A stretch of DNA of 64,000 nucleotides, taken from positions 6,382-70,381 of the forward strand of contig OZ251219.1 of NCBI GenBank assembly GCA_965240465.1, read 5' to 3'. Shown in pieces: positions 1,145 through 61,983 of the stretch. This DNA comes from a bacterium. Lineage in GTDB: Bacteria > SAR324 > JACQKK01. The translations under genes and the position numbers were made by a program. The notes beneath the pieces are model-generated. The model made no database searches and was not told the DNA's origin. It worked only from the letters and a program-made list of their open reading frames with translations. Every line of letters starts with the position of its first letter. The first letter of the stretch is position 1.

Positions 1145-2098
1145 TTGTTGAAAGGTGAAATGCGAGACTTATTTCTAGAAAAATTACCAGATGTTTTTCA
1201 TCATTTTACCCGCAAAGATTGGGCGTATTTTGGCAATCAGGGAACCTTGCAGCTCTCAAAACAAGAGCTAGTAAGCCTGAGTGGTCTAGGAGAACCAATT
1301 TCTTTGGATGCGGTATCCGAGGTATATGTTTCTCTATGTCGCCTTATAAATCTTCATATTCAGGCTAGAAAGAATATCCTGCACGCTTCACAGTTCTTTA
1401 TGCCTAAGCACCACGCCAAAATCCCTTTTGTTATCGGGATCGCTGGCAGTGTAGCAGTAGGCAAGAGCACCATTGCTAGAGTACTGAAAACACTCCTTTC
1501 ACGAGGAGAATCTAAGCCTAAAGTCAGTCTTATTCCCACTGATGGCTTTCTTCTTCCCAACGCTGAACTAAAAAAACTAAACCTCATGGAATGTAAGGGA
1601 TTCCCCGAAAGCTATCGGCTTCGCTCACTGTTAAATTTTCTGGCAACCATCAAAGCTGGTAAGCCCTCGCAAGCTCCTGTCTACTCCCATCTCCTTTACG
1701 ATATAATCCCCAAGCAATTTAACAAAATAGTGCAACCAGATATTCTTATCGTAGAAGGACTCAATCTTTTACAAATCCCCCCGCAAAAAAACCCTTCAGT
1801 CTCTGACTTCATTGACTTTTCCATATACGTCCACGCTCAACCCCGTCTGATAGAAACATGGTACTGCCAGCGTTTCTTGAAACTCCTAAGCACAACCTTC
1901 CAAGACCCCTCTTCCTACTTCCACGAATATGTCCAACTCTCTCAAAAAAAAGCCTTCCAAGAGGGAAAACGCATCTGGAAAAACATTAATCTCGTTAACC
2001 TTATTGAAAATATCCATCCCACCATGCAACGTGCCAACCTCATCTTAGAAAAAAGACAGCAACACGTCATCAGCCACATCCACCTCCGTAAGCTCTAA
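1145..2098 (+). CDS. coaA: Type I pantothenate kinase
   Basis: GIAGSVAVGKST Walker A, TDGF, KGFPESY, APVYSHLLYDI, IVEGLN motifs. Confidence 0.95.
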   Translation: MLKGEMRDLFLEKLPDVFHHFTRKDWAYFGNQGTLQLSKQELVSLSGLGEPISLDAVSEVYVSLCRLINLHIQARKNILHASQFFMPKHHAKIPFVIGIAGSVAVGKSTIARVLKTLLSRGESKPKVSLIPTDGFLLPNAELKKLNLMECKGFPESYRLRSLLNFLATIKAGKPSQAPVYSHLLYDIIPKQFNKIVQPDILIVEGLNLLQIPPQKNPSVSDFIDFSIYVHAQPRLIETWYCQRFLKLLSTTFQDPSSYFHEYVQLSQKKAFQEGKRIWKNINLVNLIENIHPTMQRANLILEKRQQHVISHIHLRKL

Positions 2099-2104
2099 TG
2101 CATC

Positions 2105-2135
2105 GCCCAATAAGCACTGCCCAATAAGCACTGCC
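2105..2135. repeat. 14-bp tandem duplication (GCCCAATAAGCACT x2) between convergent genes
   Basis: Seen directly in sequence. Confidence 0.9.
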
Positions 2136-5122: not shown

Positions 5123-7246
5123 TTAGAATTTGCTTTGTTTGTTGAGTAGTTTGAAAATACGTTTTTGGATGAATACTTCCAACATGTTTTTATCAATGTG
5201 ATTTTGGAAGGCTTCTTCTTGGAGTATTTGGATGGCCTTTTCAGGAGGGAGTGCCTTTTTGTATGGTCGGTCTAGGGCAGTGAGGGCGTCAAATATATCC
5301 ACGACTGTCATTATTTTGGCTTGAACGGGGATTTCTTTAGCTACCAGTTTTCTTGGGTATCCAGTGCCATCAAGTTTTTCGTGGTGGGCGTGGGCGATAT
5401 CGGGAACGAATTTGAGTTCTGGGGTCCAGGGAATTTTGCTAAGGAAGCTATAAGTGTGGGAGACATGCGATTCTATTTCTTGGCGATCTTTTTCAGTAAG
5501 AGAGCCTCTGGGGATTTTGAAGCTAGATAGCTCTTTTTCAGAAATGAAAGGGATAGCCTCTCCCTTCAGATTAGTGAAGAATTTTTGGCGTAGTTCCATC
5601 AATAGCTTTAGATCTTCATCGGAGAGTTCAGTGGGTTCATTGCAGCGTGCCAGCAGGACCGAAATGTTATCTATCTCTGCCATGGACTGCTTGAGTTCTT
5701 GCTGAGCCTTTTTGATGATAGCTGGGGTTACTTGGTTACCATTTTTTGTCAATTGCAGTTGTTTTTGAGTATTTTGCAAGGTGATCAGGGTTCGGATATA
5801 TTCCAAGCGGTCAAACATCCGTTGATATTGGTGAGGATAGAGCTTCTTAGCCTTGACGAGAACATGCTCGCGAACACCGATCTTGCCAAAGTCATGGAGC
5901 AAAGCCGCGTAACGGATTTCTTCTAGTTGTTCCTTAGAATAATTTATGTTGCGGAATTCCTTATGAGTATTCAGCTGGCTGATTTCCTCAGCTAACCCAA
6001 CGGTAAGGATCGCGACCCGATAAGAATGACCAGAAGTAGTTGGGTCCCGAGATTCAATTGCCTGAGCACTAGCGTTGATGAAGCCCTCAAATAATTTACG
6101 GATGCTGTTGATAAGCTTGGCATTTTGTAATGCAATGGAAGCCTGACTAGCTACTGATATCATCCAGCCTTCTTCTCTTTTAGAAAAAGGAGCAACAAAT
6201 TTTTCAAATTCTTTGGGTTTGTCTAATAAGGCGTTCTGTTTGGTCTTGTGATTGATCAGCTGAATAACACCAATGGTTTGTCCATGCGTGTTCAACATGG
6301 GGACAGTCAGCATTGACTTAGTACGGTAGCCTATGGACTTATCAAAATCTCGTCCTCCCCAAGAATAGCCCGCCTTAGTACCGATCTTATAAACATCGTC
6401 TATCCTCAAGGGCTTTTGTGTGATCGCCACTCGTCCATAGATGGTCTTCATGCTAACATCCAGTGTGAACGCACTAAAAGGCACCTTATGAGAGTCGTTT
6501 TGGGCTACCTGAAAACGCATGCGTTTATTGGCCAGCCAGTCATTAGGATCTTCCTTTTTGTCGGGATCTACCTCAATCAGGTAGAGCGAACCTGCATCGG
6601 CAAAGGTCAAGTCTCGGCAGCGTTTTACAATCAATTCCAGCAGACGGTCTAGGTCTCGCTCGGTGGAGAGTGCCTTGCCGATCTGGTTGAGCATGTTTAG
6701 GGTTTCATTATCTGAAAGAGTCTGACGCTTCAAGACATTGGTTTCAGATGCTTTTGAAAGTGCTTGTATCTCACGCCTTATTTTGAACAACAAAAACTTT
6801 ATCGGAATACCTTCTCTGACGGTATCCACCATCAAATTATCACATTTCTCTAGATGCTGTATGTTTTCTATCCCCAAAATCATGCGGCCGCGTTTAGGGA
6901 AATTCTTTGGAAACGTGCCTATCTCGCTAACAACATCTTTAGAATTGATAAAAGCCACCACTTGCTCTTCATGCACCCTTTTGATCAAAGCGGGAGATAC
7001 CTCATCATAAAAAATGATGTTGTCGTGTTCTAAATCTTGCGGTTCCAGCCGCTGATAATCCTTCTTAAAGGAGCTAGGCAGCAACACCTCAAAGACTAGC
7101 TTTGAGGATGAATTAGCAACTCGCTTTTTGCTTGACGCAGTGGCAGTCTTGGCTACCGCCTTTTGCTTCGCTTTTTTAGTAGTATCTTTCACAGTATCTT
7201 TCACAGTATCTTTCACAACATCCCTCACAGCGTCTCTCACAGCCAT
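5123..7246 (-). CDS. GAF + HD-GYP cyclic-dinucleotide phosphodiesterase
   Basis: GAF (ADAGSLY..., GYRTKSMLTVPM, GVIQLIN); GHSYRV, LHDFGKIG, HHEKLDGTGYP, DIFDALTA.DRPYK. Confidence 0.9.
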   Translation of the reverse strand: MAVRDAVRDVVKDTVKDTVKDTTKKAKQKAVAKTATASSKKRVANSSSKLVFEVLLPSSFKKDYQRLEPQDLEHDNIIFYDEVSPALIKRVHEEQVVAFINSKDVVSEIGTFPKNFPKRGRMILGIENIQHLEKCDNLMVDTVREGIPIKFLLFKIRREIQALSKASETNVLKRQTLSDNETLNMLNQIGKALSTERDLDRLLELIVKRCRDLTFADAGSLYLIEVDPDKKEDPNDWLANKRMRFQVAQNDSHKVPFSAFTLDVSMKTIYGRVAITQKPLRIDDVYKIGTKAGYSWGGRDFDKSIGYRTKSMLTVPMLNTHGQTIGVIQLINHKTKQNALLDKPKEFEKFVAPFSKREEGWMISVASQASIALQNAKLINSIRKLFEGFINASAQAIESRDPTTSGHSYRVAILTVGLAEEISQLNTHKEFRNINYSKEQLEEIRYAALLHDFGKIGVREHVLVKAKKLYPHQYQRMFDRLEYIRTLITLQNTQKQLQLTKNGNQVTPAIIKKAQQELKQSMAEIDNISVLLARCNEPTELSDEDLKLLMELRQKFFTNLKGEAIPFISEKELSSFKIPRGSLTEKDRQEIESHVSHTYSFLSKIPWTPELKFVPDIAHAHHEKLDGTGYPRKLVAKEIPVQAKIMTVVDIFDALTALDRPYKKALPPEKAIQILQEEAFQNHIDKNMLEVFIQKRIFKLLNKQSKF

Positions 7247-7491: not shown

Positions 7492-8403
7492 ATGAACAAA
7501 CTCTCCACCGCCGAACAAACTAACACGCCACCAAAAACAGGGAGTATAGCCTCCAAATATCATTCCTCTGTTGATTCTACCACTAAATCCATCGGTTTTT
7601 CCTTCACTCCCGCAACTGCTTCTACCATCACCTTTGGAACTTGGAACGTTAATTCTCTGCGAGCTAGAATGGAACACGTCCGCAGATTCCTAATAGAACA
7701 CGCCCCCGATGTACTTTGTCTCCAAGAAACAAAACTACCAGACGAATTGTTTCCTCAGTCAACATTTGAAGAATTGGGCTATCATGCGGTCTGGTGGGGA
7801 GAAAAAAGCTACAATGGAGTAGCTATTCTCTCAAAGCATCCCATCACCAACACCAATAGGGAGCTTGATAATAAACAATCACGCTTAATTTCCAGTACCA
7901 TTAAGGGTATTCGGGTTATCAATGGCTATTTTCCTCAAGGACGCAACATCGCTAGCGAGCATTTTGCTTACAAGCTCAGTTTCTATAAGCAGCTACGAGA
8001 AACACTAGAGAGAAACCATCAACCCTCCCAAGCCATGCTGCTGGCAGGTGATTTTAACATCGCCCCAGAGCCTCGCGATGTTTATGACCCTCGGGCAATG
8101 GAAAATAAAATATCATTTCACCCCCAAGAAAGAGAAGTTTTAGCACAACTTAGCAACTGGGGATGGCAAGATGCCTTCCGTTTGCTACATCAGGAAAAAG
8201 GACACCACACTTGGTGGGATTTTCGCACCGCCGCCTGGGAAAAAGGACACGGACTCCGCTTAGACCACATCTGGCTTACTAAACCACTCGCTCAACAGCT
8301 GCTAAACTGCTGGATAGAAACCCAAGAACGAACCCGCTTCAAACCCTCTGACCATGTTCCCGTGCTGGCTGAAATTAAATACCCTCCGACAGCTTCACAG
8401 TAG
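7492..8403 (+). CDS. xth: Exodeoxyribonuclease III
   Basis: TWNVNSLRAR, LQETK, YNGVAI, GDFNIAP, TWWDFR, GLRLDH, SDHVPV. Confidence 0.95.
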   Translation: MNKLSTAEQTNTPPKTGSIASKYHSSVDSTTKSIGFSFTPATASTITFGTWNVNSLRARMEHVRRFLIEHAPDVLCLQETKLPDELFPQSTFEELGYHAVWWGEKSYNGVAILSKHPITNTNRELDNKQSRLISSTIKGIRVINGYFPQGRNIASEHFAYKLSFYKQLRETLERNHQPSQAMLLAGDFNIAPEPRDVYDPRAMENKISFHPQEREVLAQLSNWGWQDAFRLLHQEKGHHTWWDFRTAAWEKGHGLRLDHIWLTKPLAQQLLNCWIETQERTRFKPSDHVPVLAEIKYPPTASQ

Positions 8404-8406
8404 CAT

Positions 8407-9381
8407 TTGTTCTATCATAGCTATGGATTCCTTATCTTTATGGTATTTCCCTTGCCTTCTTCTCCTCCCCTATTAAGCGATCCCGAACTAGCTACTCTAC
8501 TCGGAGACACCCCCGCTCCCATTCCCAGTAATGCTAACTGGCCAATGCTGGATGCCCTACATCATCGGACCGCATTGCTGCTGGGAAAACGCCTCAAGGT
8601 GCGTTTTAGTCCTAAGCTTTCGGCAAGGGCCTATTCTACCCAATCTTCTCATGACTTGAAAAATCTAGGACTTACCGTACTTCTACAATTGCACTCCCCC
8701 AAAAAAAAGCCCCTGCCACTCGCCTTCACCCTAGATAAACACGCCGCCCACCTCGTAGCAGATCTCCTATTAGGAGGAATCGGACCAGCGAACCTCAAAC
8801 CACACTTCTCCAACATTGAAAAACGAATGCTCGTCCGACTGTCAGATGCTCTCATCGCAGCTATCCAGCTAGCCCTGCAGCCTATCTTACCCACCCGAGC
8901 AATAATCACCCACTGGCTACCACACCAAAACCCCCTCCCACAACTGACGCAACAACCTCTCCTCTCCGCTATGATCAAAATCGGCACTACTGAGGCTTGC
9001 ACTCCGATTCACATCCATTGGCCAACCTCAAACATCTACTCACTCTGGCCGCAAGCAATACCCACTACTACTCCATTAACCTCAATCCCGACTTCTGACC
9101 AGTCATCTGCTGAATTATTTTCAGAAAAAACATCACCTAAGCACCTCTCTCAGCACCTCTCTCAGCACCTCTCTCACAACAGGGTGCGTGTCGCAACGGA
9201 GCTGGGAAATACCTCCATGCCCCTAGGAAAATTCCTGCAACTCAAGCTCGGGGATACCATTACCCTTGATCAATCTGTTGATCAGCCCTTAAAAGTACTT
9301 ATAGAAGGAATCCCTTTCTTCCAAGCTTCCCGTAGTCAGCAACAGGGACAAGAAGCTTTCATCTTAAAGGGAAGCATATGA
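8407..9381 (+). CDS. Divergent FliM-like protein with C-terminal FliM/FliN (SpoA) domain
   Basis: VADLLLGG...FSNIEKRML and VATELGNTSMPLGKFLQLKLGDTITLD...LKVLIEGIPFF. Confidence 0.65.
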   Translation: MFYHSYGFLIFMVFPLPSSPPLLSDPELATLLGDTPAPIPSNANWPMLDALHHRTALLLGKRLKVRFSPKLSARAYSTQSSHDLKNLGLTVLLQLHSPKKKPLPLAFTLDKHAAHLVADLLLGGIGPANLKPHFSNIEKRMLVRLSDALIAAIQLALQPILPTRAIITHWLPHQNPLPQLTQQPLLSAMIKIGTTEACTPIHIHWPTSNIYSLWPQAIPTTTPLTSIPTSDQSSAELFSEKTSPKHLSQHLSQHLSHNRVRVATELGNTSMPLGKFLQLKLGDTITLDQSVDQPLKVLIEGIPFFQASRSQQQGQEAFILKGSI

Positions 9382-10748: not shown

Positions 10749-11150
10749 ATGCGATTGCGAGGTCGTGCGGATATTAAATTGGTATTTCGTCAAGGAGAGC
10801 ATTATCATCTTGGTGCTATGCAGGCACGGGTATTAAGGCGTTCGGATGATTTACGGCGTTATATGATTACGGTTTCCAAGCGTTTGGGAGGAGCAGTGGT
10901 TCGTAATCGGGTTCGGCGTTGGGTTCGGGAGGCACTGCGGGAGGCACTGCGGGAAACACCGCGAGAGGCACTGCATCGGGGGGGAGGGCAGGCGGCCAGT
11001 GGATTAGAGGGTTATAATGGGTGGGATGTGTGTTTATTTTTTCCCCCATCAAGCAGAAAGCAAGCTGCTCAGAGTTATAAAGGCTTATGTGCAGAGGTAG
11101 ACATCTTAATGAAGCGATTATGGGATGTGAAAGAAAGTGTAGGGCGATAG
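10749..11150 (+). CDS. rnpA: Ribonuclease P protein component
   Basis: TVSKRLGGAVVRNRVRR (RNR motif); position after rpmH; contains REALREAL stutter. Confidence 0.9.
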   Translation: MRLRGRADIKLVFRQGEHYHLGAMQARVLRRSDDLRRYMITVSKRLGGAVVRNRVRRWVREALREALRETPREALHRGGGQAASGLEGYNGWDVCLFFPPSSRKQAAQSYKGLCAEVDILMKRLWDVKESVGR

Positions 11151-11152
11151 AC

Positions 11153-11431
11153 ATGACAATCTTGCTGATTTGGGTAGTACAAGTTTATAGATTTTTTATA
11201 TCACCATTGCTACGACCTTCGTGTCGGTTTTTTCCCAGTTGTTCTGATTATGCAGAGCAGGTGTTACAACAGCATGGCTGGTTGCGAGGTGGTTGGTTGT
11301 CATTGCGACGGTTGTTACGATGCCATCCCTTTAACGCAGGAGGATGGGATCCTCCACCAGTTAATGCTAGCTCTGCATGCACTAATTCCAGCTGTGACAA
11401 AGCTCACCGCCCTAAATCTAATTGCGGTTGA
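11153..11431 (+). CDS. yidD: Membrane protein insertion efficiency factor
   Basis: YRFFISPLL.PSCRFFPSCSDY...RLLRCHPF..GGWDPPP. Confidence 0.95.
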   Translation: MTILLIWVVQVYRFFISPLLRPSCRFFPSCSDYAEQVLQQHGWLRGGWLSLRRLLRCHPFNAGGWDPPPVNASSACTNSSCDKAHRPKSNCG

Positions 11432-11434
11432 TAC

Positions 11435-13135
11435 ATGAATAAAAATACATTTTTGGCAATCGGTCTTTCTATGCTAGTTCTGCTGGCTTATTATGCCTTC
11501 TTCACGCCTTCTCCTCCGACGCCATCTCCTACTCCACAGCAGCAGCAGCAATCTCCGCCGCCTTTTGCATCTTCTACTCTGAGTCAAACCTCGGAAAGCT
11601 CTGCTGAGCCTTCCAATTCTCTGCCGTTTTTGACTGAGTCAAATCCCTCATTAACCAGAAGTATCGGCACTCCCCTAGTGGTGGAAACCCCTATCTATAG
11701 GGCTCAATTTGACCTCCAAGGCGGAGTACTCCATAGCCTAGTACTAAAAAAATATCACGCAGATAAAGGTGTCACTTCTTGGAGCAAGCTACTACCCTTT
11801 CTCAGCCAGTGGTTCTCGCCAAAAGAGGTGGATGAGGTCTCTCTGGTAGAGATGGTGGACAAACGTTTTCCGCAACAATATCCCTTTGGAGTACTAATAA
11901 ATGATGATAAATCATCCTTGACCACAAAGTATAAAGCCAGCCAATCTCGGATGAACCTACAAGCTGGCGATTCTCCGCGTTCACTGGTTCTTAAAACCAA
12001 AACACCCAGCGGAACTAACATCGTTAAGACCTTCACCTTTGCACCCGATTCCTACATCATTGACTACCAATTACAAATTAGGAGTAATTCTACTCAAGGG
12101 CAGCAACTCCAAGCACTTAGCCTGATGGGTACTGCCCCTCCCAGTCCTAATATTACTAGAGGAATTGGTAATCACACGGGACCACTCTGGTGGGTGAACG
12201 ATGATCTGGAAAAAGAAGACCCTGATGATCTAAATGACGGTCTGGTTATCCAAAAAGCAGAGTGGGGTGGTAGTGCAGGTACTTATTTCATCAATGCTGC
12301 CCTAACCGAACAAGGTAGTCAGCGTCTTGTCTTCGGAGGGTTAAAAACTTCTCAGAAAAAACTGTGGCAATCTTTTTATGGATTTCAGCTCCCCAGCACC
12401 ATTGTTACAGCTTCTCAACCACTTCAACATAGGGTTCGCGTCTACATTGGTCCCAAAGACCCTAAAAGTATGAGGGATTTCCACCAAAAATTTGAGATGG
12501 CTAAAGATCTCACCCTAACTTTTATTGCCGAACCCATGCTGGTCGGACTAAGAACTTTCTATAGCCTGACTGGTAATTACGGTTGGGCTATAATAATACT
12601 GACCATCTGTATTAGGCTCATTCTCTTCCCTCTGACCTATATGGGCTCACGCTCCATGAAACGCATGAGAATCCTACAGCCCAAAATGAAAGCCATCAAG
12701 GAGAGATTCAAGGGCAATAAAGAACGTATTAACCAAGAAACATTTCAACTCTACCGCAAGCATAAAATTAACCCACTAGGAGGTTGTCTACCCATTTTAG
12801 TACAAATTCCTATCTTCTTTGCCTTCTATTCAGCCCTTCTCAGTGCTATAGAACTTAGACACCAACCCTTCATTTTCTGGATCCAAGACCTATCGGTTAA
12901 GGACGGCCTTTATATCCTCCCCATCCTTATGGCTGCCTCTATGGTGCTTCAGCAAAAAATCATGCCCGCACCTGCTGACCCCACTCAACAAAAAATACTC
13001 GCATGGATGCCTATCATATTCCTCTTCTTCATGTTTAACTTTCCCTCTGGATTGGTACTATACTGGCTGGTCAGCAATCTACTTTCCATCGTACAGCAAA
13101 TAGCCGTAGACCGCCTCACCCCCACTCCTGCCTAA
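11435..13135 (+). CDS. yidC: Membrane protein insertase YidC
   Basis: GNYGWAIIILT, NPLGGCLPILVQIPIF, ELRHQPF, PSGLVLYW. Confidence 0.97.
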   Translation: MNKNTFLAIGLSMLVLLAYYAFFTPSPPTPSPTPQQQQQSPPPFASSTLSQTSESSAEPSNSLPFLTESNPSLTRSIGTPLVVETPIYRAQFDLQGGVLHSLVLKKYHADKGVTSWSKLLPFLSQWFSPKEVDEVSLVEMVDKRFPQQYPFGVLINDDKSSLTTKYKASQSRMNLQAGDSPRSLVLKTKTPSGTNIVKTFTFAPDSYIIDYQLQIRSNSTQGQQLQALSLMGTAPPSPNITRGIGNHTGPLWWVNDDLEKEDPDDLNDGLVIQKAEWGGSAGTYFINAALTEQGSQRLVFGGLKTSQKKLWQSFYGFQLPSTIVTASQPLQHRVRVYIGPKDPKSMRDFHQKFEMAKDLTLTFIAEPMLVGLRTFYSLTGNYGWAIIILTICIRLILFPLTYMGSRSMKRMRILQPKMKAIKERFKGNKERINQETFQLYRKHKINPLGGCLPILVQIPIFFAFYSALLSAIELRHQPFIFWIQDLSVKDGLYILPILMAASMVLQQKIMPAPADPTQQKILAWMPIIFLFFMFNFPSGLVLYWLVSNLLSIVQQIAVDRLTPTPA

Positions 13136-13181
13136 GCCTCGTTGATATGAATGATAGGGGAGGGGGGAGGGGGGTGTCGTG

Positions 13182-13240
13182 CATTGTCTTTCTTAAACAT
13201 TGGTCTTTCTTAAACATTGGTCTTTCTTAAACATTGTCTT
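13182..13240. repeat. 17-bp tandem repeat GTCTTTCTTAAACATTG x3, preceded by a G-tract (about 13157-13175)
   Basis: Seen in convergent intergenic region. Confidence 0.9.
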
Positions 13241-13892
13241 AAATATCCCCTAGGGAACGGAAACGTTCTATTTGCCATCGCCTTCTAAGGCGGTGGAAGA
13301 AGATTTTGGTCTGAGAGCGGGTCATATCCAGAGCTTTTTTGAGGATGTATTCGGGGTTATTTTTGGATAATTTTTTTACTAAATGAGAACGCATCATAAC
13401 TTGACCATCCTCAACCCGAATTACCTGTCCAATCAGCCAGAGTTCGTTTTGTTTGCTACATGCGGGACATGAAATTTGCTCAAAATGGATTGTGATAAGC
13501 AAGTCTACATCTAGGGCTTTGCCGATTATTTTGGCATTATCATCGTGGGGAAAGCCCGCTAGGGATATGTTTTCAGCTAGTTGTTGCTGAGCTGCTTTGA
13601 GTTGTAAATTTTCATTTAGCTTGGTGATAATTGATGTGCGAGTTAAAAACTGCTGCCAAGGGAGTCCCGCCAGCTGCTTTTCTGATTCTCCAATAACGGT
13701 CTCGTGTAATTCGGGTTCGGTGCCAGGGGGAACTGGAAGTTTGAGTAAGGCAACCCTTTTTGAAAGAAGTGGAAGACGCTCCTTAGGCCTGTAGACAACA
13801 GAATCAGAGCAGCTATTAAAAATCAATAAGACGCCAATCATTGTGCAGGCGATGCCACATGATAAAACTGAAAGCCTCATTGAAAGCCTCAT
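13239..13892 (-). CDS. Hypothetical lipoprotein
   Basis: Hydrophobic leader ending FNSC; CxxC (CPAC); overlaps mutS stop. Confidence 0.6.
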   Translation of the reverse strand: MRLSMRLSVLSCGIACTMIGVLLIFNSCSDSVVYRPKERLPLLSKRVALLKLPVPPGTEPELHETVIGESEKQLAGLPWQQFLTRTSIITKLNENLQLKAAQQQLAENISLAGFPHDDNAKIIGKALDVDLLITIHFEQISCPACSKQNELWLIGQVIRVEDGQVMMRSHLVKKLSKNNPEYILKKALDMTRSQTKIFFHRLRRRWQIERFRSLGDI

Positions 13893-17924: not shown

Positions 17925-17930
17925 GTTTTT

Positions 17931-47818: not shown

Positions 47819-47885
47819 CGTATTTTCTCATCAATATTTTCCGCCAGAAATACCTATGATCAGTTATAGGATACACACTATTCTA

Positions 47886-48998
47886 CTAATCATCCAAATC
47901 ATGTTGTTGCCGTAATCTACTAAAAGCCCACTGCGGTTCCTGACGCAACCAGTGGTCAATTAAAACCAAATTCACCATCGCTTCCACTACCGGTACCGCA
48001 CGAGGTAGCACGCAGGGATCATGGCGTCCTTGCCCTCGCAATAACACCTTTTCTCCTTTGCGATTAACTGTCTGCTGTTCTTTAGCGATGGTAGAAGTAG
48101 GCTTGAAAGCTACCCGCAACAGGATCGGTTCTCCATTGCTAATTCCCCCCTGTATTCCCCCAGAACGATTGCTTGCAGTGCCAATTCCCGCAGGCTTTTT
48201 CACATACACATCGTTGTGTTCTGAGCCTAGTTGAGTAGTTGCCGCAAATCCCAGACCAAATTCCACTCCACGGGTGGCAGGTAGAGACATTAAACCCTTA
48301 GCTAAATCCGCCGTTAGCTTGTCAAAAACGGGTTCTCCCAGCCCCGCAGGACAGCCGCGTACAACCACTTCTATAACACCACCAACGCTATCACCCTGCT
48401 TTTTTACCTCCATAATATAAGCCTCCATCTCCCGTGCAGCCTTGGCATCGGGACACCTCACCACGTTGCTTTCAATTTGCTCACCCGAAACTCGTTCCAC
48501 ATCTACCCGGCTTCGCAACTTATGAACCTCTGAAACCCAAGCTAAGGTCTCCACTCCGTGCAAACTTAATAGTTTCTTAGCCACCGCACCAGCAGCTACC
48601 CGAGCAACAGTCTCACGTGCACTAGCTCTACCTCCACCCTGCCAATTGTGTATTCCATATTTTTGCTCATAACTAAAATCGGCATGGCTAGGACGATACC
48701 GTTCCCTAAAAATCTTATAATCCTGTTGCCGAGCATCGCCATTGCGTACCAACATAGCCAAAGACGTCCCGAGCGTGTGCCCTTCAAACACTCCGCTGAC
48801 AATCTCCACCTGATCCTGCTCGGAACGCTGAGTGGTTATCTGACTCTGGGACGGACGCCGCCGCTTCAACTGCTGCTGAATATCATTTTCAGTTAAGGGC
48901 AAGCCCGCTGGGCAACCTTCTACCACCACCCCGACCGCAACCCCATGGGACTCCCCCCAGCTGGTAATCTTGAAAAATTTGCCAAAAGTATCACCCAC
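47886..48998 (-). CDS. aroC: Chorismate synthase
   Basis: [42 protein letters not shown]. Confidence 0.98.
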
Positions 48999-49981: not shown

Positions 49982-50302
49982 ATGACGACTATATATTCTT
50001 CTTCTGAATCTGATGTTTCTTCTAACAAGAAATGTGTGTACATAGTTGTTTATGGCAGGGTGCAGGGTGTAGGTTATCGGGAATTTGTGTGTAAGGTTGC
50101 CAAACATTTTCAATTGACAGGATGGGTACACAACATGCCTGATGGACGCGTAGAGGCAGTGGTACGCATAAGTCATCAAATACTTCCTAAATTAGTTACC
50201 TTCCTAAAACAAGGAACTCCCTCTTCTAAAGTTATTCGGGTATCAACCAAAGAAATTTCATCCCTCAGTTGCCCGATCCGCGGCTTTGATATTATTACCT
50301 AA
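49982..50302 (+). CDS. acyP: Acylphosphatase
   Basis: VYGRVQGVGYR...GWVHNMPDGRVE. Confidence 0.9.
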   Translation: MTTIYSSSESDVSSNKKCVYIVVYGRVQGVGYREFVCKVAKHFQLTGWVHNMPDGRVEAVVRISHQILPKLVTFLKQGTPSSKVIRVSTKEISSLSCPIRGFDIIT

Positions 50303-51423
50303 CCCGTCTTGGCCCGAAATCTGGTTGCAGAAAAAGGTTTGATTACCGAGGGACATTCATTATCCAACATCAGGCTTACCAAGCTGTGGGCGGTGATGGG
50401 TGCATTCAGGATACCATTCCGATAATGACCCGTTGCCACAAAAAAACCAGGGGCAATCCGACCCACAATAGGAGCATTATCCCGACTACCAGGTCTTAAC
50501 CCTGCCCAAACTTCTTCCAGTGGCCACTCATCTACCCTGGGGAAAATTCTCCGTGCCTCCCGAAGCAAATCAAACAACACTCCCGCACTGGACTGTTTAT
50601 CAAAGCCTCGTTCTTCCACTGAAGCCCCTATCAATACCCTGCCATCCTCCCGCGGCACCAAGCAGTACCCATACCTAACCCCATGCAGTACACGCTTAGG
50701 AATCTCGTGCTGGGGTGCTCGCAAACACAACATCTGCCCCTTGATAGGCCGCACTGGCAAATCCACCAAAGAATCTACCCCCTTAATCATTCTACTCCAA
50801 CAACCTGCTGCCAATAGCACCTGTTTTCCTAGTAATACCTCGCCTTCCACCTGAACTGCAGGGGCTTCATCTCCCTGAGGTAATAGCTCCTGAACCTCAC
50901 AATGCTCCCGTAATTCTCCTCCAGCCGATAAGAATGCTCGCCTTAAAGTAGCCATCAAACGCCTATTGTCCACCTGATAATCATCCACCTTTATCCCCGC
51001 TACCACCCGAGGGGACAACCCATCCTCGCACATCTGTGCCTCCTCTCCTGATAACCATCGCACCTGATCTCGCTGCCCCTGCTGACGCTTAAATATCCGC
51101 TCCAGTTGCTGACGCTCATCGGCATCCAATGCCACTTGCAACGTTCCCTCATTGCGAAACCCTACCCGTTCTCCGCTGGCAGCCTCTAACTCGCGCACGA
51201 AATCTGGGTACAACCTCAAACTAGCCAGACCCAATTGATAAACCTCTTCTCCGTCCACCTCCAGCTCACATAGCGGCGACAACATTCCCGCCGCCGCCCA
51301 CGAGGACTCCTGCCCCGTCCCACCCCGCTCTAATATCAATACCCGCTCCTTACGCCGTGCCAACAACCATCCCACCGACAGCCCAATTATTCCCCCTCCT
51401 ATTATCAAGACGCCCCGATTCAT
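50299..51423 (-). CDS. thiO: Glycine oxidase ThiO
   Basis: IIGGGIIG, SWAAAGML, PIKGQM, WAGLRP, GHYRNGIL. Confidence 0.9.
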   Translation of the reverse strand: MNRGVLIIGGGIIGLSVGWLLARRKERVLILERGGTGQESSWAAAGMLSPLCELEVDGEEVYQLGLASLRLYPDFVRELEAASGERVGFRNEGTLQVALDADERQQLERIFKRQQGQRDQVRWLSGEEAQMCEDGLSPRVVAGIKVDDYQVDNRRLMATLRRAFLSAGGELREHCEVQELLPQGDEAPAVQVEGEVLLGKQVLLAAGCWSRMIKGVDSLVDLPVRPIKGQMLCLRAPQHEIPKRVLHGVRYGYCLVPREDGRVLIGASVEERGFDKQSSAGVLFDLLREARRIFPRVDEWPLEEVWAGLRPGSRDNAPIVGRIAPGFFVATGHYRNGILNAPITAHSLVSLMLDNECPSVIKPFSATRFRAKTG

Positions 51424-51484
51424 GCTCTGTTACTCAGCTAGATAAAGCCTCTGCCCGTTACCAGATATATCCTACACCAGAAAG

Positions 51485-52708
51485 CTATTCAAATAGCCAA
51501 TACCAACCGTAAGCCAACAAAACAGCTGGAACAGCACTATAAACAGTCGCCACCAGAGAGGCTTTAGGAGCCACTGCCAAGGCAGGGAAGAGGGCATCAC
51601 CATCATTGCAGATGGCGTTTCCCAGTTGAGCTGAGAACGGTATCAAACCATTGACATACAGGGTAGTCACTACCACTTGCGGTCCGCAACCCGGTATAAA
51701 GCCTAAGACAATTCCCATCAAAGGCACCAGCGGCGCCCACAAACTAAAGAACTGTTCCAATTGAACTCCGCTGAAAAACAAAGCTAGTTCATAGAGTAAA
51801 AACGCCAAAACTATCCACTTGGTAACAAAATTGGTATCATTTGCAATTCTACTAATAGTAGATCCATATTTCCATTTAACTACTAATTCTCTATGAGCAT
51901 GGCAACAATGTGGCTCACTAGGAGTTTTTTGCAGGGGCAAGATATCCCACATCATAAGACTCAAACTAGCCCCAAAAACACCCACCACTAAACGAGGAGA
52001 AAAGCCCTCAATTCCCAGCAGGGCATCAGCATCTAGCTGAAAGGCATCGGCTAAGCCCAGCACTACGCCTGGTATCAATATTAACATCCAAGCCCAGCCA
52101 AACAGAGACATCGGGGCTACTAAATTTCTATGTTTATGGCAAAGCAACTTTCCCGTTTTCTTGCTACGTAGAAAATCAGGCCCATGGATGGCATCCACCA
52201 GCATGCCACTGATACTCCCCACCACAATGCTACCTGCAAATAATCCTAATGCCACCAACGGTTTGCGTGCCAACAGCAAAAATGCAGCATCTCCCATAGT
52301 AGATATTAACACTGCCACCAAAGCCCCAAAACTAATGCCACCCTTCACATATTGAGTCACCACCACAATCGCCCCGCCACAGCCAGGCAAAGCCCCCGCC
52401 ACCGCCGCAATCACAGGCTGAACCCGACTGTACCGCTGCAGTAAACCAGCAACGTCCAAGCCTAGCCAATCCTCCAAAATGTAAAACAACGCCAAAGTGG
52501 CTGCCACAAACACCACCACCGACAAATAGGCATCCCTAAGCACCCACATCAACAAGATACGAGTCTGAGGGTTAACCAATAAACCCACCATAATCACGTA
52601 CAACAGCCACTTTCCCCAATTTACTGACTTTACGGCAACCAGAACCCCCTCGAACAAGCATAGCAACCTCGTCCAAGGTATTTTTAATTTCAGAATCAAT
52701 TCGGTCAC
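51485..52708 (-). CDS. Putative metal (Mn/Fe) transporter, DUF2899-type
   Basis: Twin PGCGG / PGCGPQ motifs, TMGDAAF, NDGDALFP, His/Cys loop. Confidence 0.8.
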   Translation of the reverse strand: MTELILKLKIPWTRLLCLFEGVLVAVKSVNWGKWLLYVIMVGLLVNPQTRILLMWVLRDAYLSVVVFVAATLALFYILEDWLGLDVAGLLQRYSRVQPVIAAVAGALPGCGGAIVVVTQYVKGGISFGALVAVLISTMGDAAFLLLARKPLVALGLFAGSIVVGSISGMLVDAIHGPDFLRSKKTGKLLCHKHRNLVAPMSLFGWAWMLILIPGVVLGLADAFQLDADALLGIEGFSPRLVVGVFGASLSLMMWDILPLQKTPSEPHCCHAHRELVVKWKYGSTISRIANDTNFVTKWIVLAFLLYELALFFSGVQLEQFFSLWAPLVPLMGIVLGFIPGCGPQVVVTTLYVNGLIPFSAQLGNAICNDGDALFPALAVAPKASLVATVYSAVPAVLLAYGWYWLFE

Positions 52709-52845
52709 GACTATCTGCTTATCTGTCTTTTAATCCATCTACAATATCACTAGTACTTAGACTTAATCTTTCAGGTTTGTAGAACTAACAGCATCTCAAG
52801 GCTATACCAAACTACAAATCAATCTAATAGAACATCAGTCTAAAT

Positions 52846-52864
52846 AATAATGAATATCATTCTC
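52846..52864. promoter_or_regulatory. Fur-family box upstream of the metal transporter
   Basis: AATAATGAATATCATTCTC matches 15/19 of GATAATGATAATCATTATC. Confidence 0.7.
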
Positions 52865-52983
52865 ATTACCGTCCCATTGTCTACCACGCCTTACCTACTT
52901 GTCAATAAGGATCACAAAATTATTTTTGAAAACAACTTTTAACAGTCGCTAGAAAAAGCAGACTCTTATCCAAAGGCCAACGC

Positions 52984-54084
52984 CTAACCACCATACATTA
53001 GTCTCTGACGCTTAAAATGACGTAGTGTACCGCGTTCTCGTACATCACCAGCTTTAAGAATCACAGCATCAGTAGCACTCTTGCCATCTGGGCTGACCAG
53101 CGTACCTCCCACCGCTAAACGCCAAGCAGGAATCACGGGTATCTGATATTCAACCCCATTAACTTCCAAAAGTAGCGGCGGCAAAACTTGCCCGCTAGCT
53201 TCGTCGTATATTTTCTTTCCCAAAGCCATAACCACGCCACTAGCAAGCACTGCACCTTCCTGTACAATCCCTGCCACTTCACACATGGCTCCAATCCGTA
53301 CTTTGTTTTCAACTATGGTTGGCATGCGTCCTGAAGGCTCTAACACCCCTTCTAATCCTGTACCCGCACCCAATTTCACCCCCAGACCTACCTGAGTTGC
53401 AGAAGCCACCCGTACTCCCGTATCTACCATTACTCCGTCGCCGCCAATCCAAGCCCCTATGTTTATAAATGCCTGACTCATGACCACTGTCCCTGCCCCC
53501 AACCAAGCCCCCCGCCGTACCACCGAACCAGGCAAATAACGAACCCCACCTTCACGAAAACGAGTAGCATCCCAGCATGCAGTCTTCAAAGGAATCTTGT
53601 CCCAATAGCCACCCTCCATACGGGTATTCTCATGAGTAGAAAAATAATTCAGTACCCCTTGCATCACCCATACTTGAGGTTGCCACTCCCCATCTACCTT
53701 CTCTGCACAACGAACCCGACCATCATCCATTAAATCAATTAAATCTTCTGTATCCCCCGCCGAACCCTCAAGCTTATTCAACCTCTCCACCACTCCCTCA
53801 CTCCCCTCTACCATCTCTACTTGCACACCCTTAAAAATCTCTTCTGAAATCAACAAACTCGCTATCGCGTCCTCCTTTTCTAAACACCTCCGCTCAGCCG
53901 ACCCCAAGTCACCCAATAGTGACCAATTCAAGCTACACTCTCCATCATCACCCTCCACTGATAGCAACGACAATATTCTTAACACCTCGCCATTATCACC
54001 CAAATTAGGCAACACCGCGTGCGTTTCATCACCGATTCTCAGACGCATTAACACAATCTGTTTCCAATTTTTAAACTTTGCCAT
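52984..54084 (-). CDS. dapD: DapD-like tetrahydrodipicolinate N-succinyltransferase with N-terminal extension
   Basis: LMDDGRVRCAEK..GEW...WDKIPLK...GVRYLPGSVVRRGA, FINIGA, GVLEP. Confidence 0.75.
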   Translation of the reverse strand: MAKFKNWKQIVLMRLRIGDETHAVLPNLGDNGEVLRILSLLSVEGDDGECSLNWSLLGDLGSAERRCLEKEDAIASLLISEEIFKGVQVEMVEGSEGVVERLNKLEGSAGDTEDLIDLMDDGRVRCAEKVDGEWQPQVWVMQGVLNYFSTHENTRMEGGYWDKIPLKTACWDATRFREGGVRYLPGSVVRRGAWLGAGTVVMSQAFINIGAWIGGDGVMVDTGVRVASATQVGLGVKLGAGTGLEGVLEPSGRMPTIVENKVRIGAMCEVAGIVQEGAVLASGVVMALGKKIYDEASGQVLPPLLLEVNGVEYQIPVIPAWRLAVGGTLVSPDGKSATDAVILKAGDVRERGTLRHFKRQRLMYGG

Positions 54085-54165
54085 TTAACTTTATGTACCT
54101 ATTTTACTATCCAAAAGAAAGATTGAAATATTTCTTACAGAAACACTTTCCCTGCATGAAACTGT

Positions 54166-55053
54166 TTAGGCAATACCCATAAAAATAGTTTTTGAGCTGG
54201 GGGTAATTTGGAATTGGTGCTGAGGTGGGATTGCTTCGCCATCCAATTGGGCTGCCAAGGGAGTTTCTGAGTTGATAGTACAGTAATTTCCCAGTTGATA
54301 TTGGGAAAATTTGGTAGTGTTTTGTTTGAGGGGTACAAAGATTTTCAGTAGCATAGCAGTAAGATGTCCTAAAGGGGCAGCTACAAATACCAATTGGGGT
54401 TTAAGCAATCCTGCTTGGGAATGGATAATAAAAGGACCGGCGTATCGTTTAGCACGGCAAGCTATCAACCAGACAGATTGTCGTTGTGGAGAAGGGGGGC
54501 TGGAAGGCTGGGCTGATTTTGTGTGAACCTGCCAAGAAAATGATATCTTGGGAGACAAAAATTCTCGTAAACCCTGCAAGACATAGCTACCCACTCCCAG
54601 CCATTGTTTTTGCCATCTCCTTGTAGCATGCACTACGCGGGCATCGTATCCGAAGCTAGCCATCAGTAAAAAGGCACGCCCGTTCAGGCTACCAGGACGC
54701 ACCTTAATAACCCTCATACGAGCAACGGCGGGAGCTATTTTTCGGGTCTGTAAGGGAATGTTTAGTTCTCGTGCCAGAACATTTGCTGTTCCTCCGGGCA
54801 AACATATCAGCGGAAGTTGACGCCCCAGCAGTCCATTGGCAGCTTCATTGAATGAGCCATCTCCCCCCATCACCGCCACCCTGGTTACACCCCTGACCTG
54901 TTGTACCAACTCCCTCAAGTGCCCTGGATATTTGCTTTCCTGCACCCGAGTCTGAATCCCTTCCGCATGTAGTCCTCTCAAGATGGCTTCTAGACGTGCA
55001 GAAGAATACCTCCCCGCTTTTGGATTATACAGTACCGCCCAGTTCTCCATCAT
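54166..55053 (-). CDS. Diacylglycerol/lipid kinase family (YegS-like)
   Basis: NPKAG, GGDGS, PGGTANVLA, GYDA, QLDGE. Confidence 0.9.
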   Translation of the reverse strand: MMENWAVLYNPKAGRYSSARLEAILRGLHAEGIQTRVQESKYPGHLRELVQQVRGVTRVAVMGGDGSFNEAANGLLGRQLPLICLPGGTANVLARELNIPLQTRKIAPAVARMRVIKVRPGSLNGRAFLLMASFGYDARVVHATRRWQKQWLGVGSYVLQGLREFLSPKISFSWQVHTKSAQPSSPPSPQRQSVWLIACRAKRYAGPFIIHSQAGLLKPQLVFVAAPLGHLTAMLLKIFVPLKQNTTKFSQYQLGNYCTINSETPLAAQLDGEAIPPQHQFQITPSSKTIFMGIA

Positions 55054-58971: not shown

Positions 58972-60039
58972 TTGTCCCGACCGTATCTTATAAGATTGCA
59001 TGCTATGGCTTTTAAGCTAAACCCCCTCACTCTTGCACATATCACCGCTTTTCGTAAGCGAAAGCTTTCTTGGTATTCCCTGATCGCGATTATAGCCATA
59101 TTTTCATTATCTTTGGGGGCTGAATTGTTAGTGAATAACCGCCCTGTGGTGATGAATTGGCAAAGCAAATTGTATTTTCCCGTTTTCAAGCAATACAACC
59201 CCGATGAGTTTGGACAAGAAGGAACATTTGTAACCGATTATCGCGAGATTCCATTCTCTGAAGAAGATTGGGCGATTTGGCCGTTGGTACGCTGGGGACC
59301 CCTTGAATCTGATCTCAGTTTGGAATTTTTCCCTTCTCCGCCCAGTAGTAAGCACTTGCTTGGCGTAGATGACAAAGGTCGCGATTTGCTGGCCCGTCTG
59401 TTGTATGGATTTCGCATTGCCATGACATTTGCCCTGGGAGTGTGGTTGATGTCGTTTTCCATTGGCATGTTTGCTGGAGCTGTGCAGGGTTACTTTGGTG
59501 GACGAGTAGATTTCTACGGCCAACGATTATCTGAAATTTGGAGTTCAGTACCTACATTTTTTCTCCTGATCACTATCAGTTCAATCTTTACCCCTAATGT
59601 TTTTATTCTAGCCGTGTTGTTTGCCATTTTTGGCTGGACGGTCATTGCCCAATATCAACGGGCTGAGTTTCTAAATCTCCGCCGCCGCGAGTTCATAGAA
59701 GCAGCTCGCGTGGCTGGTGCAAGCCCCTGGCGAATAATATGGAGACACGTAATGCCTAATGCCATTACTCCAATTGTTACATTCACACCCTTCGCCATAG
59801 CTGGCGGAATTACCGGTATCGCTGCTCTAGACTACCTAGGTTTCGGACTTCAACCTCCTGCTCCCAGTTGGGGCGAATTACTACGCCAAGCCCTACAACA
59901 TTTTTCCACTGCCTGGTGGATTTCCGTCTATACCGTTGGATGCATGTTCGGCGTGTTATTGCTACTTGTCTTTATCAACGAAGGTGCCCGTGAAGCATTT
60001 GACCCCCGGAAGCTTTATCACGACAGCAATTCTTCTTAA
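58972..60039 (+). CDS. yejE: Peptide ABC transporter permease (YejE-like)
   Basis: LGVDDKGRDLLARLLYGFR, RAEFL, LDYLGFGL, SWGELL, EGAREAFDP. Confidence 0.8.
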   Translation: MSRPYLIRLHAMAFKLNPLTLAHITAFRKRKLSWYSLIAIIAIFSLSLGAELLVNNRPVVMNWQSKLYFPVFKQYNPDEFGQEGTFVTDYREIPFSEEDWAIWPLVRWGPLESDLSLEFFPSPPSSKHLLGVDDKGRDLLARLLYGFRIAMTFALGVWLMSFSIGMFAGAVQGYFGGRVDFYGQRLSEIWSSVPTFFLLITISSIFTPNVFILAVLFAIFGWTVIAQYQRAEFLNLRRREFIEAARVAGASPWRIIWRHVMPNAITPIVTFTPFAIAGGITGIAALDYLGFGLQPPAPSWGELLRQALQHFSTAWWISVYTVGCMFGVLLLLVFINEGAREAFDPRKLYHDSNSS

Positions 60040-60057
60040 AGCCCCCTGTTAGACCCA

Positions 60058-61983
60058 CTAAGACCTGCTACTAGCATGCGAGCGATCATCGGTGTGAGCC
60101 TCATGCCACGACTGATACGCCGCCTGCACCACTTGCTCCACCGTCAAACCTGCCTCACGCATTTGTTCTTCCAATCCGCCAAAGGGTATAAATCTATCTG
60201 GCAACCCCATGACCCTAACGGGACGCTGGATATTCTCCCTTGCAAACAGTGCTAAAAGGGACTCACCAAAGCCCCCTTGAACAGTATTGTACTCTATGGT
60301 CAATACGGCTGCTGCTTGTTTTGCTTGAGCAAGTAGCATACCCTCATCCAAGGGTTTGATAAAGCGTGCATTCACAACCGAACAGGGAATATCTAATTCC
60401 TTAGCAACTTGACAGGCTGTACTAACTGTGGCCCCTATGCCTATCAGTAACAAGCAACCCCGCTGAGATTTTTGTAGCAGTTCTGCCTCACCAATGGGAA
60501 TGGGAGTAAGTGTGGAAGGTAGAGACATGGCCAGAGTTTCGCCTCTAGGATAACGCATGGCAATGGGTCCCTGATTGTAACGGTGGGCAGAGAGCATCAT
60601 GCGACGCATTTCCTGTTCGTTGCGAGGGGCCATGTGGACAAAATTAGGGATGAGGCGAAGATAACTGAGATCAAACACGCCATGATGAGTAGGTCCGTCA
60701 GAACCGACCAAGCCACCTCTATCCATCATGATACGCACCGGCAATTTTTGCAGGGCGATATCATGAATCAGCTGATCAAAGGCTCGCTGTGAGAAAGTAG
60801 AATAAATTGTAACGAACGGCTTCAGACCGCCGATGCTCATACCCGCTGCACTACAATAGGCATTAGATTCTGCGATTCCCACGTCTATCACCCGCTGAGG
60901 ATACTTTTCAGCAACCTTGCCGAGCCCTGTGTTACTGAGCATGGCAGCTGTAATGGCTACTACTTTAGGGTCTTCATCCATAATAGCAAGCATGCCTTCT
61001 GTATAAATGTTGGTCCATGTCTTAGTAGCAGGGGTAGAAATAATAGGCATGTTCTTGGTTTGTTTCTGAGGAGAAACTGCGTGAGACGCGAAGGTATTTT
61101 CCACTTTTTTACCCAATCCCTTCCCCTTAACAGTTTGTACATGCAAAACCACCGTTTCAGGTAACTTCTTTACATGCCCTATAATCTCTATCAAGGCCTC
61201 AAGATTGTGTCCGTCCACAGGGCCAAAATAATGCAGTCCCATAGATTCAAACCACGCTGCTTTATCGCTAGCGTAATCTTTTACAGAGCGTTCTATGTGT
61301 TTAAGGCTTTTTAATATCTCCTCACCAAATGGAGCTTTCTTACCAAATCTTTTTATTTCCTTGCGTAGCAAATTATATGAATTAGAGATAGTAATGCGAG
61401 TAACAGTTCTGGCACAAAATCCTACATTGCTGTCAATGCTCATTCCATTATCATTGAAAATAACCAGTAGTTTGGGCTTGAGAGCCCCAGCTAGATGCAA
61501 AGCTTCATATGCCAATCCTCCCGTCATGGCACCATCACCAATTACAGCCATCACGTGATGGTTTTGCTTCCTTAGGTCGCGCGCAATGGCCATCCCCAAG
61601 GCTGCCGAGATAGAAGTAGAAGCATGTCCCGCACCCATGTGATCGTAGGGACTTTCGCTACGCTCCAAAAACTTGCACATGCCTCCCCATTGACCATAGC
61701 GATGAAAACGATTGGCACGACCTGTCAGCAATTTATACACATGCCCCTGATGCCCAACATCCCAAGCGATACGGTCTTGCAGGAAATCAAAGTGGCGAAA
61801 CAATGATAGTGTCAATTCTACCACACCCAAGGATGCCCCCAAGTGCCCGCCAGTCTTGTGAATAGCGTCTATCAAAAACGCGCGAGCCTCTATCACCAAA
61901 GGTCTTAATTCCTCTGAGGTCATCTGGCGCAAATTTGCAGGATCACTAAAGCTAGCGAGATGGGGGTAGATTTGTTCATCCAT
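60058..61983 (-). CDS. dxs: 1-deoxy-D-xylulose-5-phosphate synthase
   Basis: GGHLGASLGVVELT, WDVGHQ, GHASTSISA, GDGAMTGG, DVGIAE, DGPTHHG. Confidence 0.98.
   Translation of the reverse strand: MDEQIYPHLASFSDPANLRQMTSEELRPLVIEARAFLIDAIHKTGGHLGASLGVVELTLSLFRHFDFLQDRIAWDVGHQGHVYKLLTGRANRFHRYGQWGGMCKFLERSESPYDHMGAGHASTSISAALGMAIARDLRKQNHHVMAVIGDGAMTGGLAYEALHLAGALKPKLLVIFNDNGMSIDSNVGFCARTVTRITISNSYNLLRKEIKRFGKKAPFGEEILKSLKHIERSVKDYASDKAAWFESMGLHYFGPVDGHNLEALIEIIGHVKKLPETVVLHVQTVKGKGLGKKVENTFASHAVSPQKQTKNMPIISTPATKTWTNIYTEGMLAIMDEDPKVVAITAAMLSNTGLGKVAEKYPQRVIDVGIAESNAYCSAAGMSIGGLKPFVTIYSTFSQRAFDQLIHDIALQKLPVRIMMDRGGLVGSDGPTHHGVFDLSYLRLIPNFVHMAPRNEQEMRRMMLSAHRYNQGPIAMRYPRGETLAMSLPSTLTPIPIGEAELLQKSQRGCLLLIGIGATVSTACQVAKELDIPCSVVNARFIKPLDEGMLLAQAKQAAAVLTIEYNTVQGGFGESLLALFARENIQRPVRVMGLPDRFIPFGGLEEQMREAGLTVEQVVQAAYQSWHEAHTDDRSHASSRS

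Follow-up and report, generated by a model that had tools for sequence, protein, structure and literature searches.

Substitution asymmetry between the two DNA strands has been linked to transcription in both bacteria and humans: C>T changes on the non-transcribed strand of Escherichia coli were reportedly found by Beletskii and Bhagwat in 1996, and an asymmetry localised at the 5′ side of human genes is said to have been described by Polak and Arndt in 2008. In termination by Rho, the factor loads on C-rich, G-poor RNA, and a Rho utilisation (rut) stretch is untranslated RNA of about 80-100 nucleotides (nt). [quoted passage not shown] Bidirectional asymmetries around human CpG islands have been described as well (Polak & Arndt 2009, PMC2817419). 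Here we describe a strand bias in a SAR324 bacterium in which the GC skew of the sense strand falls along operons and returns abruptly at their boundaries, giving a sawtooth. It was noticed in a stretch of 64,000 nt (the window: bases 6382-70381 of the single-contig genome G000, which has 1,599,138 bases and 45.4% GC; assembly GCA_965240465.1, contig OZ251219.1). The closest match to the Lon protein of this genome comes from a SAR324-cluster metagenome-assembled genome, at 58% identity.

The sawtooth shares features with each of these systems. Like the fungal skews, it has opposite signs at the two ends and reaches fourfold sites and amino acids; unlike them, its sign is reversed, it belongs to bacterial operons rather than to eukaryotic Pol II genes, and it occurs in one genus only. 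With transcription-associated asymmetry it shares a G+T-rich sense strand and may share an excess of C>T and A>G on that strand that is strongest in the first 1-2 kilobases (kb) after the start, but the known bacterial effect is weak and keeps one sign along the gene, whereas here the sign reverses within the unit. Replication skew and, in mammals, the asymmetries at CpG islands and those of N-domains show similar origin-type upward jumps, gradual falls and G/T-rich leading-strand polarity; the present scale is 2-4 kb instead of replichores or at least 100 kb, and the anchors are transcription-unit boundaries. Searches of open-access papers and bioRxiv found no bacterial description of an operon-scale or intragenic skew gradient, and the same kinds of source on reduced SAR324 genomes yielded nothing on this organism. 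As far as these searches found, strong operon-scale strand bias has not previously been described for bacteria. We regard it as a new variant of transcription-linked strand asymmetry, unusual in its amplitude, its sign reversal within the unit and its confinement to one genus.

A 300-nt profile of the forward strand of the window falls repeatedly, starting at about +0.3 to +0.5 and ending at -0.3 to -0.56, and each fall is followed by an abrupt return. We defined 20 units and fitted coding-strand GC skew in 150-nt bins, taking p<0.05 as significant; the slope is significantly negative in 11/20 units and significantly positive in 0/20 (Table 1). The seven clearest ramps drop by 0.22-0.36 per kb, and seven units cross zero, with starts at +0.18 to +0.56 and ends at -0.13 to -0.49. 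The thirds of mutS have skews of +0.49, +0.16 and -0.28. Three ramps follow a single line across 2-4 genes (ogt to a 155-amino-acid (aa) open reading frame (ORF), gpmI with a purO-like gene, and yajC-secD-secF); since these ramps cross several genes as one line, the unit is the operon and not the gene. The forward strand always falls from left to right because the pattern is symmetric under reverse complement. At the convergent boundary at 13140 a C-rich tract lies on both outgoing sense strands, and short tandem repeats occupy 13157-13240.

The first-pass annotation, made from the window alone, had described a coding strand that is G/T-rich at the 5′ side and C/A-rich at the 3′ side and resets at unit boundaries, and we judge this description right. 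Its four hand counts on 60-nt lines are exact (14281-14340, 24 G/5 C; 16201-16260, 5 G/23 C; 10861-10920, 21 G/9 C; 13081-13140, 8 G/26 C). Among the units in which it saw the trend by eye, ogt-TPR, gpmI-purO-like, lon, yajC-secDF and aroC carry it, while the thiO unit is a plateau more than a ramp. The exceptions that it named also hold: xth does not start G-rich, and the AT-rich inserts are without the pattern, as seen in the flat ORF of Table 1 and in low-GC genes genome-wide. Gene names (ogt, gpmI, purO-like, thiO, mutS, lon, yidC, yajC, secD, secF, aroC, rnpA, xth, panK and dxs) were checked against NCBIfam.

Table 1. Units and boundaries in the window, with coding-strand GC skew from start to end of each unit, or the G share of G+C on either side of a boundary.
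Feature	Position in window	Strand	Skew or G share	Slope per kb	r	p
panK unit (type I pantothenate kinase)	1145..2098	+	-0.04 to -0.43	-0.80	-0.95	0.004
707-aa response-regulator-like gene (only a weak NosR-family match)	5123..7246	-	+0.20 to -0.28	-0.26	-0.84	
xth + fliM-like ORF	7492..9381 (xth 7492-8403)	+	starts C-rich, -0.21	no significant ramp		0.16
rnpA-yidC unit	10749..13135	+	+0.38 to -0.32	-0.28	-0.69	
Convergent boundary, upward jump refined to 13140	13135..13239		G share 0.36 to 0.59			
mutS + 217-aa ORF	13239..16678	-	+0.50 to -0.13	-0.28	-0.83	1.5e-6
AT-rich (27% GC) defence-type methyltransferase ORF, MADS-like match	18816..21290	+	flat, about +0.25	-0.012	-0.07	
489-aa ORF	21594..23063	-	+0.08 to -0.26	-0.30		0.043
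Four-gene unit: ogt, 257-aa ORF, TPR protein, 155-aa ORF	25520..29148	-	one ramp, +0.56 to -0.23	-0.30	-0.89	8e-9
Divergent boundary, upward jump refined to 29173	29148..29338		G share 0.23 to 0.60			
gpmI + purO-like gene	29338..31807	+	+0.18 to -0.49	-0.36	-0.87	
lon	32424..34886	-	+0.27 to -0.25	-0.22	-0.70	
yajC-secD-secF	37683..40764	+	one ramp over three genes, +0.19 to -0.38	-0.26	-0.83	
aroC + DnaJ-domain ORF	46661..48998	-	+0.29 to +0.05	-0.15	-0.80	
dapD-like, arsenic-efflux-like and thiO genes	50299..54084	-	G-rich throughout, +0.59 to +0.24, plateau more than ramp	-0.06		0.03
Tandem boundary, upward jump refined to 54153	54084..54166		G share 0.23 to 0.57			

The operon-scale sawtooth is real and genome-wide in G000. 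All genome-wide statistics use rough gene calls that we made ourselves by greedily taking the longest ORFs, with 90 aa as the minimum, and all unit-level statistics use transcription units guessed from strand and gap length. The standard deviation of GC skew in 600-nt windows is 0.196, against 0.061 from binomial sampling, and G-C per 100 nt has a variance of 134 where about 45 is expected, its correlation length being about 0.5-1 kb. Local 300-nt skew goes as far as about +0.5 and -0.5, which exceeds the replichore skew several times over. Lobry-type skew flips sign only at the origin and terminus and follows fork direction, whereas here skew jumps greater than 0.5 number 137 upward and 69 downward in 1.6 Mb (binomial p=2.5e-6), in addition to one ordinary switch near 600 kb, and the skew follows gene position, with only an offset of about 0.06 following the replichore. 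The upward jumps lie at gene boundaries in 124/137 cases, compared with 53/137 random positions (p=4e-20) and 27/69 downward jumps.

Among units of 1.2-4 kb in G000 the slope is significantly negative in 114/355 and significantly positive in 16. Units differ widely in their ramps: the total drop has a median of only 0.155 per unit, the slope is non-negative in 29% of 426 units, and same-strand gene runs contain several teeth. The jump averages 0.17 at divergent boundaries, 0.10 both at convergent boundaries and at tandem gaps above 100 nt, and 0.014 at gaps of at most 20 nt; at these shortest junctions the ramp does not reset and spans the whole operon. The rise in skew is already present 100-200 nt upstream of start codons, and the last 400 nt of units average -0.05 (-0.17 in the same-genus genome G001, on the left side of convergent boundaries), with single units reaching -0.5.

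At fourfold sites the skew likewise depends on position, the coding strand starting at -0.038 and reaching -0.335 along genes; at codon positions 1 and 2 the same trend has about 30% of the fourfold amplitude, so that the pattern reaches the proteins, as the first reading of the window had proposed. The fourfold shift is seen in every neighbour context, and T goes with G, not with C. With 300-nt segments ranked by their skew at positions 1+2, C at fourfold sites varies inversely with G in G001, and with both T and G in G000. The 35 genes below 42% GC show little or no gradient (positive in 2/7 and 17/28, compared with 307/419 at native GC); these ramp-free genes were probably acquired, and their lack of a ramp fits a slow build-up of the bias in resident genes.

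We compared G000 with the genome of a sister species of the same genus (G001; 1.72 Mb, one contig, 49% GC) and 11 others of the phylum: members of the family with 2.8-4.5 Mb at 52-68% GC, of the class with 1.5-2.4 Mb at 33-36% GC, and of the order at 48-49% GC. The sister genome has the trait at least as strongly, with a 600-nt skew standard deviation of 0.223 and 58/125 units significantly negative against 5 positive. Its jumps concentrate at convergent and long-gap tandem boundaries, not at divergent ones (mean 0.25 at convergent boundaries, 0.14 at tandem gaps above 100 nt, 0.09 at divergent boundaries, 0.007 at gaps of at most 20 nt). The C-rich part of its units scales with unit length, reaching 1.7 kb inside coding sequence, and the skew crosses zero near mid-unit. 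No gradient was found in the 11 other phylum genomes, in which the 600-nt standard deviation is 0.044-0.144. For MutS, the skew of the first third minus that of the last is +0.77 in G000 and +0.62 in G001, and lies between -0.15 and +0.10 in 28 other genomes. Among the genomes examined, the trait is thus derived and confined to this genus. GC content and genome size are ruled out as its cause by the unskewed genomes at 33-36% GC and 1.5-2.4 Mb and at 48-49% GC, and an assembly artefact is ruled out because two closed assemblies, independent of each other and with their reading frames intact, both have the trait.

We obtained 218 reciprocal best pairs from 404 ORFs of the sister genome, with a median identity of 62%. 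The ramps of orthologues correlate between the two species, with r=0.74 at all sites (137 pairs) and 0.65 at fourfold sites (80 pairs), while fourfold identity is 0.348 against 0.249 expected, which means that synonymous sites are nearly saturated. Gene-specific ramps are therefore kept at near-saturated sites by a force that is persistent or recurrent and tied to the locus. The gpmI gene of the sister genome lies in two pieces (L230/L231, G001:C1:1067225-1068837), the first of which contains one TGA and two TAA codons; the broken locus retains the full ramp, from +0.45 to -0.50 per 300 nt.

In order to determine the direction of substitution, we took six window genes and aligned each with 9-16 orthologues from the family, so that an alignment, G000 and G001 counted, had 11-18 sequences; we scored changes at codon positions 1+2 where at least 80% of at least 7 outgroup sequences agree, and binned them by position in the unit. 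In G000 the C>T/G>A counts are 44/42 in the 5′ zone, 38/45 in the middle and 16/36 in the 3′ zone (5′ against 3′, p=0.022); for A>G/T>C they are 38/13, 28/24 and 21/17 (p=0.07), and for skew-raising against skew-lowering changes 146/103, 130/131 and 81/102 (p=0.003). No dependence on position is seen for the transversion pairs C>A/G>T and T>G/A>C. In the unskewed control lineage G008 the ratio of C>T to G>A is 0.72, 0.88 and 0.82 across the zones and that of A>G to T>C is 1.26-1.38 (5′ zone counts 36/50 and 24/19); a second control, G009, is noisier and has no matching trend. Since G008 is flat and G009 has no matching trend, both unit ends deviate from the control, in opposite directions: at these replacement sites of six genes the sense strand has, relative to the controls, an excess of C>T and A>G in the 5′ zone, and C>T against G>A is reversed in the 3′ zone. 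The gradient is clearest in changes common to G000 and G001 (24/13 compared with 9/19, p=0.0125). For ancestral C and G at fourfold sites, with 16-44 saturated sites per class, no routes were discernible. The substitution pattern would be the signature expected if the sense strand were exposed near the start of the unit and the template strand near its end.

It is plausible, if still tentative, that the sawtooth reflects a lineage-specific, strand-asymmetric substitution bias that is linked to transcription and acts from both ends of each unit. The family has about 52-73% GC, and in the ancestor of the genus the genome would have shrunk while GC fell to 45-49%. During this fall substitutions would have become polar: over the promoter-proximal 1-1.5 kb the sense strand would lose C (C>T) and gain G (A>G), and toward the 3′ end the balance would reverse, with G>A and G>C exceeding their complements. 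Each unit would thus pass from G/T-rich to C/A-rich, and the forward strand would jump back at each unit boundary. The asymmetry may come from single-strand exposure of the displaced strand by untranslated or poorly ribosome-coupled nascent RNA, in the manner of an R-loop, with sense RNA acting near promoters and antisense or read-through RNA entering from the 3′ ends. Rho may reinforce the bias, since the RNA produced in each zone is G-rich and would escape it. As one of its two alternatives, the first-pass annotation had proposed a mutational process acting from every boundary, such as R-loop initiation or dispersed replication; the R-loop version, linked to transcription, appears to fit the substitution data best, and the replication version fares poorly, as discussed below. 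The shift in all neighbour contexts argues against a sequence-specific deaminase.

Several observations weigh against a transcription-linked bias with two sources. Its antisense source at the 3′ ends is purely conjectural. Very long genes are G-rich up to their ends, where two sources predict a C-rich tail. Fourfold A and T are near constant along genes while C trades with G, which is not expected from simple C deamination. The species-specific C>T/G>A gradient is weak (22/26 compared with 8/17, p=0.32), so that any ongoing action is at best putative. Toward the 3′ end gains of C (T>C, A>C, G>C) go up and losses of C go down (48/99 compared with 59/51, p=0.0009), while gains and losses of G barely change with position at replacement sites; the pattern resembles a directional push on C of the sense strand, and selection would account for it as well. 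Operon context, from the guessed units, did not predict differences between orthologue ramps (slope 0.006, p=0.38). Finally, the loss of a repair or R-loop gene can be rejected as the cause, as none of the gene-content differences examined accounts for the restriction to the genus.

Both G000 and G001 have UDG, RNase HI, Mfd and Rho, and so do G004, G008 and G009. The first-pass annotation had singled out rho, dnaA and rnhA as genes worth looking for: rho and an intact rnhA (255696-256100) are present in G000, together with a full-length dnaA-like gene (G000:C1:605074-606393), the only one found, whose score of 206.8 bits falls short of the 343.9 set as cut-off by NCBIfam. Neither G000 nor G001 yielded a Y-family polymerase, and nor did the unskewed G009. 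G000 has one HhH-GPD glycosylase ORF (215 aa) where G001 has two, and the longer, MutY-sized HhH-GPD ORF of G001, G004, G008 and G009 was not found in G000. A few kb downstream of the intact rnhA, and outside the window, lie four partial fragments of the RNase HI C-terminus (G000:C1:261288-271494), about 3.3 kb apart and each interrupted by a stop.

The other alternative of the first-pass annotation was that operon ends encode loading zones for Rho in place of intrinsic terminators. As selection on RNA, it would mean that 5′ parts stay rich in G and poor in C to keep Rho from loading on RNA that is poorly translated, a proposal that we consider rather unlikely, and that 3′ parts are kept C-rich and G-poor so that loading there ends transcription before a closely packed neighbour gene, which seems to us similarly doubtful. 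Several results speak for it. The main variable is sense-strand C against G, with fourfold A constant, and C against G is what Rho is said to sense. Toward 3′ ends C is gained more by each of three routes and lost less, and the ramps are a property of units and persist at saturated synonymous sites. Rho itself is present (TIGR00767, 690 bits in G000), and terminator-like hairpins follow just 5-6% of unit ends; the window has about as many hairpin terminators as chance would give (21 for 16.5 expected, 31 for 18.8). The median convergent gap is 64 nt, and C-rich, G-free words are enriched at jumps, in addition to the tracts on both outgoing sense strands at 13140.

The presence of Rho and the scarcity of terminators are shared with unskewed relatives, however. 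Rho is also found in G004, G008 and G009; hairpin-plus-T terminators are equally few in six relatives (2-4% of unit ends), so that terminator-like hairpins are rare at unit ends in 8/8 genomes tested, although 2/6 relatives have none in their mid-gene controls; and the unskewed G009 has equally short gaps (72 nt). Since Rho and scarce terminators are common to unskewed relatives, neither explains why only this genus is skewed. The zones resemble the C-over-G bubble of rut regions in having C-rich, G-poor sense RNA at unit ends, with Rho present and few hairpin terminators; they differ in extending to 1.7 kb, mostly in coding sequence, in being paired with G-rich 5′ zones and in being absent from Rho-bearing relatives. 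In G001 their scaling with unit length inside coding sequence takes them far above what a loading site needs. After stop codons the sense strand carries C-tracts no more often than G-tracts (5.3% and 5.0%), the ends of very long genes are not C-rich, and T goes with G, though Rho is said to prefer pyrimidines. The bias also alters amino acids that are conserved in relatives, which needs strong selection in a reduced genome. These points against Rho zones as a sufficient cause leave that explanation weakened.

The transcription-linked bias could also take a self-feeding form, in which every unit boundary is a two-way source of untranslated, R-loop-forming RNA that its G-richness hides from Rho, and deamination of the displaced strand raises G further. 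We think this quite unlikely. If it were true, the genome sequence would be a fossil map of sense and antisense transcription, and the excess of intergenic tandem repeats would be a second footprint of DNA events anchored at boundaries. Short arrays of such repeats lie in many intergenic gaps, in the window at 2105-2135, 7184-7289, 10660-10731, 13157-13240 and 32369-32433.

Alternatively, DNA synthesis (dispersed replication, or transcript-primed or repair synthesis) might start at every unit boundary and proceed both ways, creating miniature origin-to-terminus skew domains. Such domains resemble the N-shaped skew domains of mammalian genomes, and this proposal accounts for the sharp origin-type upward jumps, the gradual declines, the symmetry under reverse complement and the mid-unit zero crossing in G001. 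It would also suit the tandem-repeat arrays, which number 50-60 per 100 kb in G000 and G001 against 12-29 in six relatives, about twofold, and occur at several jump boundaries; boundaries with an array jump by 0.145, compared with 0.10 (p=0.02). The dnaA-like gene, on the other hand, lies near 605 kb, at the one place where the genome-scale skew switches from minus to plus, and the replichores, which look unequal (about 650 and 950 kb), have an ordinary skew of about 0.06-0.08. The drop from 5′ to 3′ is 0.12-0.19 for both gene orientations in both replichores, on top of the replichore offset. There is no reset at short intra-operon junctions and no motif at the jumps, and long genes have no linear ramp. 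The single genome-scale switch at the dnaA-like gene and the equality of the ramp in both replichores make dispersed replication, as proposed in the first-pass annotation, unlikely, and we hold synthesis from every boundary to be very improbable. Phased Okazaki priming is rejected, as it predicts one-sided teeth and the teeth are two-sided in both replichores (5th/95th percentiles about -0.42/+0.26 and -0.25/+0.40). A sequence motif is likewise rejected, no word being enriched beyond C-rich composition at the 137 refined jumps.

A gene-level translational effect, through codon choice or amino-acid gradients along reading frames, has in its favour a weak reset even at gaps of at most 10 nt (third-position skew from -0.039 to +0.084) and operon-internal genes whose 5′ ends are about as G-rich as unit starts (+0.09 against +0.12), but it is hardly credible given single ramps across three or four genes, skew that begins upstream of start codons, an effect on all three codon positions in all neighbour contexts, the ramp retained by a gpmI with in-frame stops, and relatives that have the same proteins without a ramp.

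Some further features of the sequence were recorded. The AT-rich island at window positions 17427-21290 (25-33% GC) has no ramp, and its 824-aa ORF matches parts of a methylation-associated defence system, namely the MAD2 methyltransferase and a MAD5-like specificity part. Inside a 720-aa ORF a 189-nt unit is repeated 1.9 times (window 24177-24542), and a 304-aa Sel1/TPR-like ORF contains a 48-nt unit twice (window 35302-35397). A second lon paralogue (G000:C1:1447624-1449963) contains an in-frame TAA.

An operon-scale bias several times the replication skew, which alters protein composition, has arisen in one genus. This makes the genus a natural experiment for asking how bacterial sequence is shaped by transcription, R-loops and Rho, and with two closed genomes that have the trait and many close relatives that do not, its cause can be searched for. 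In such genomes skew-based origin finding, compositional detection of gene transfer and codon-usage models are misled, and the ramps themselves may mark transcription-unit boundaries from sequence alone.

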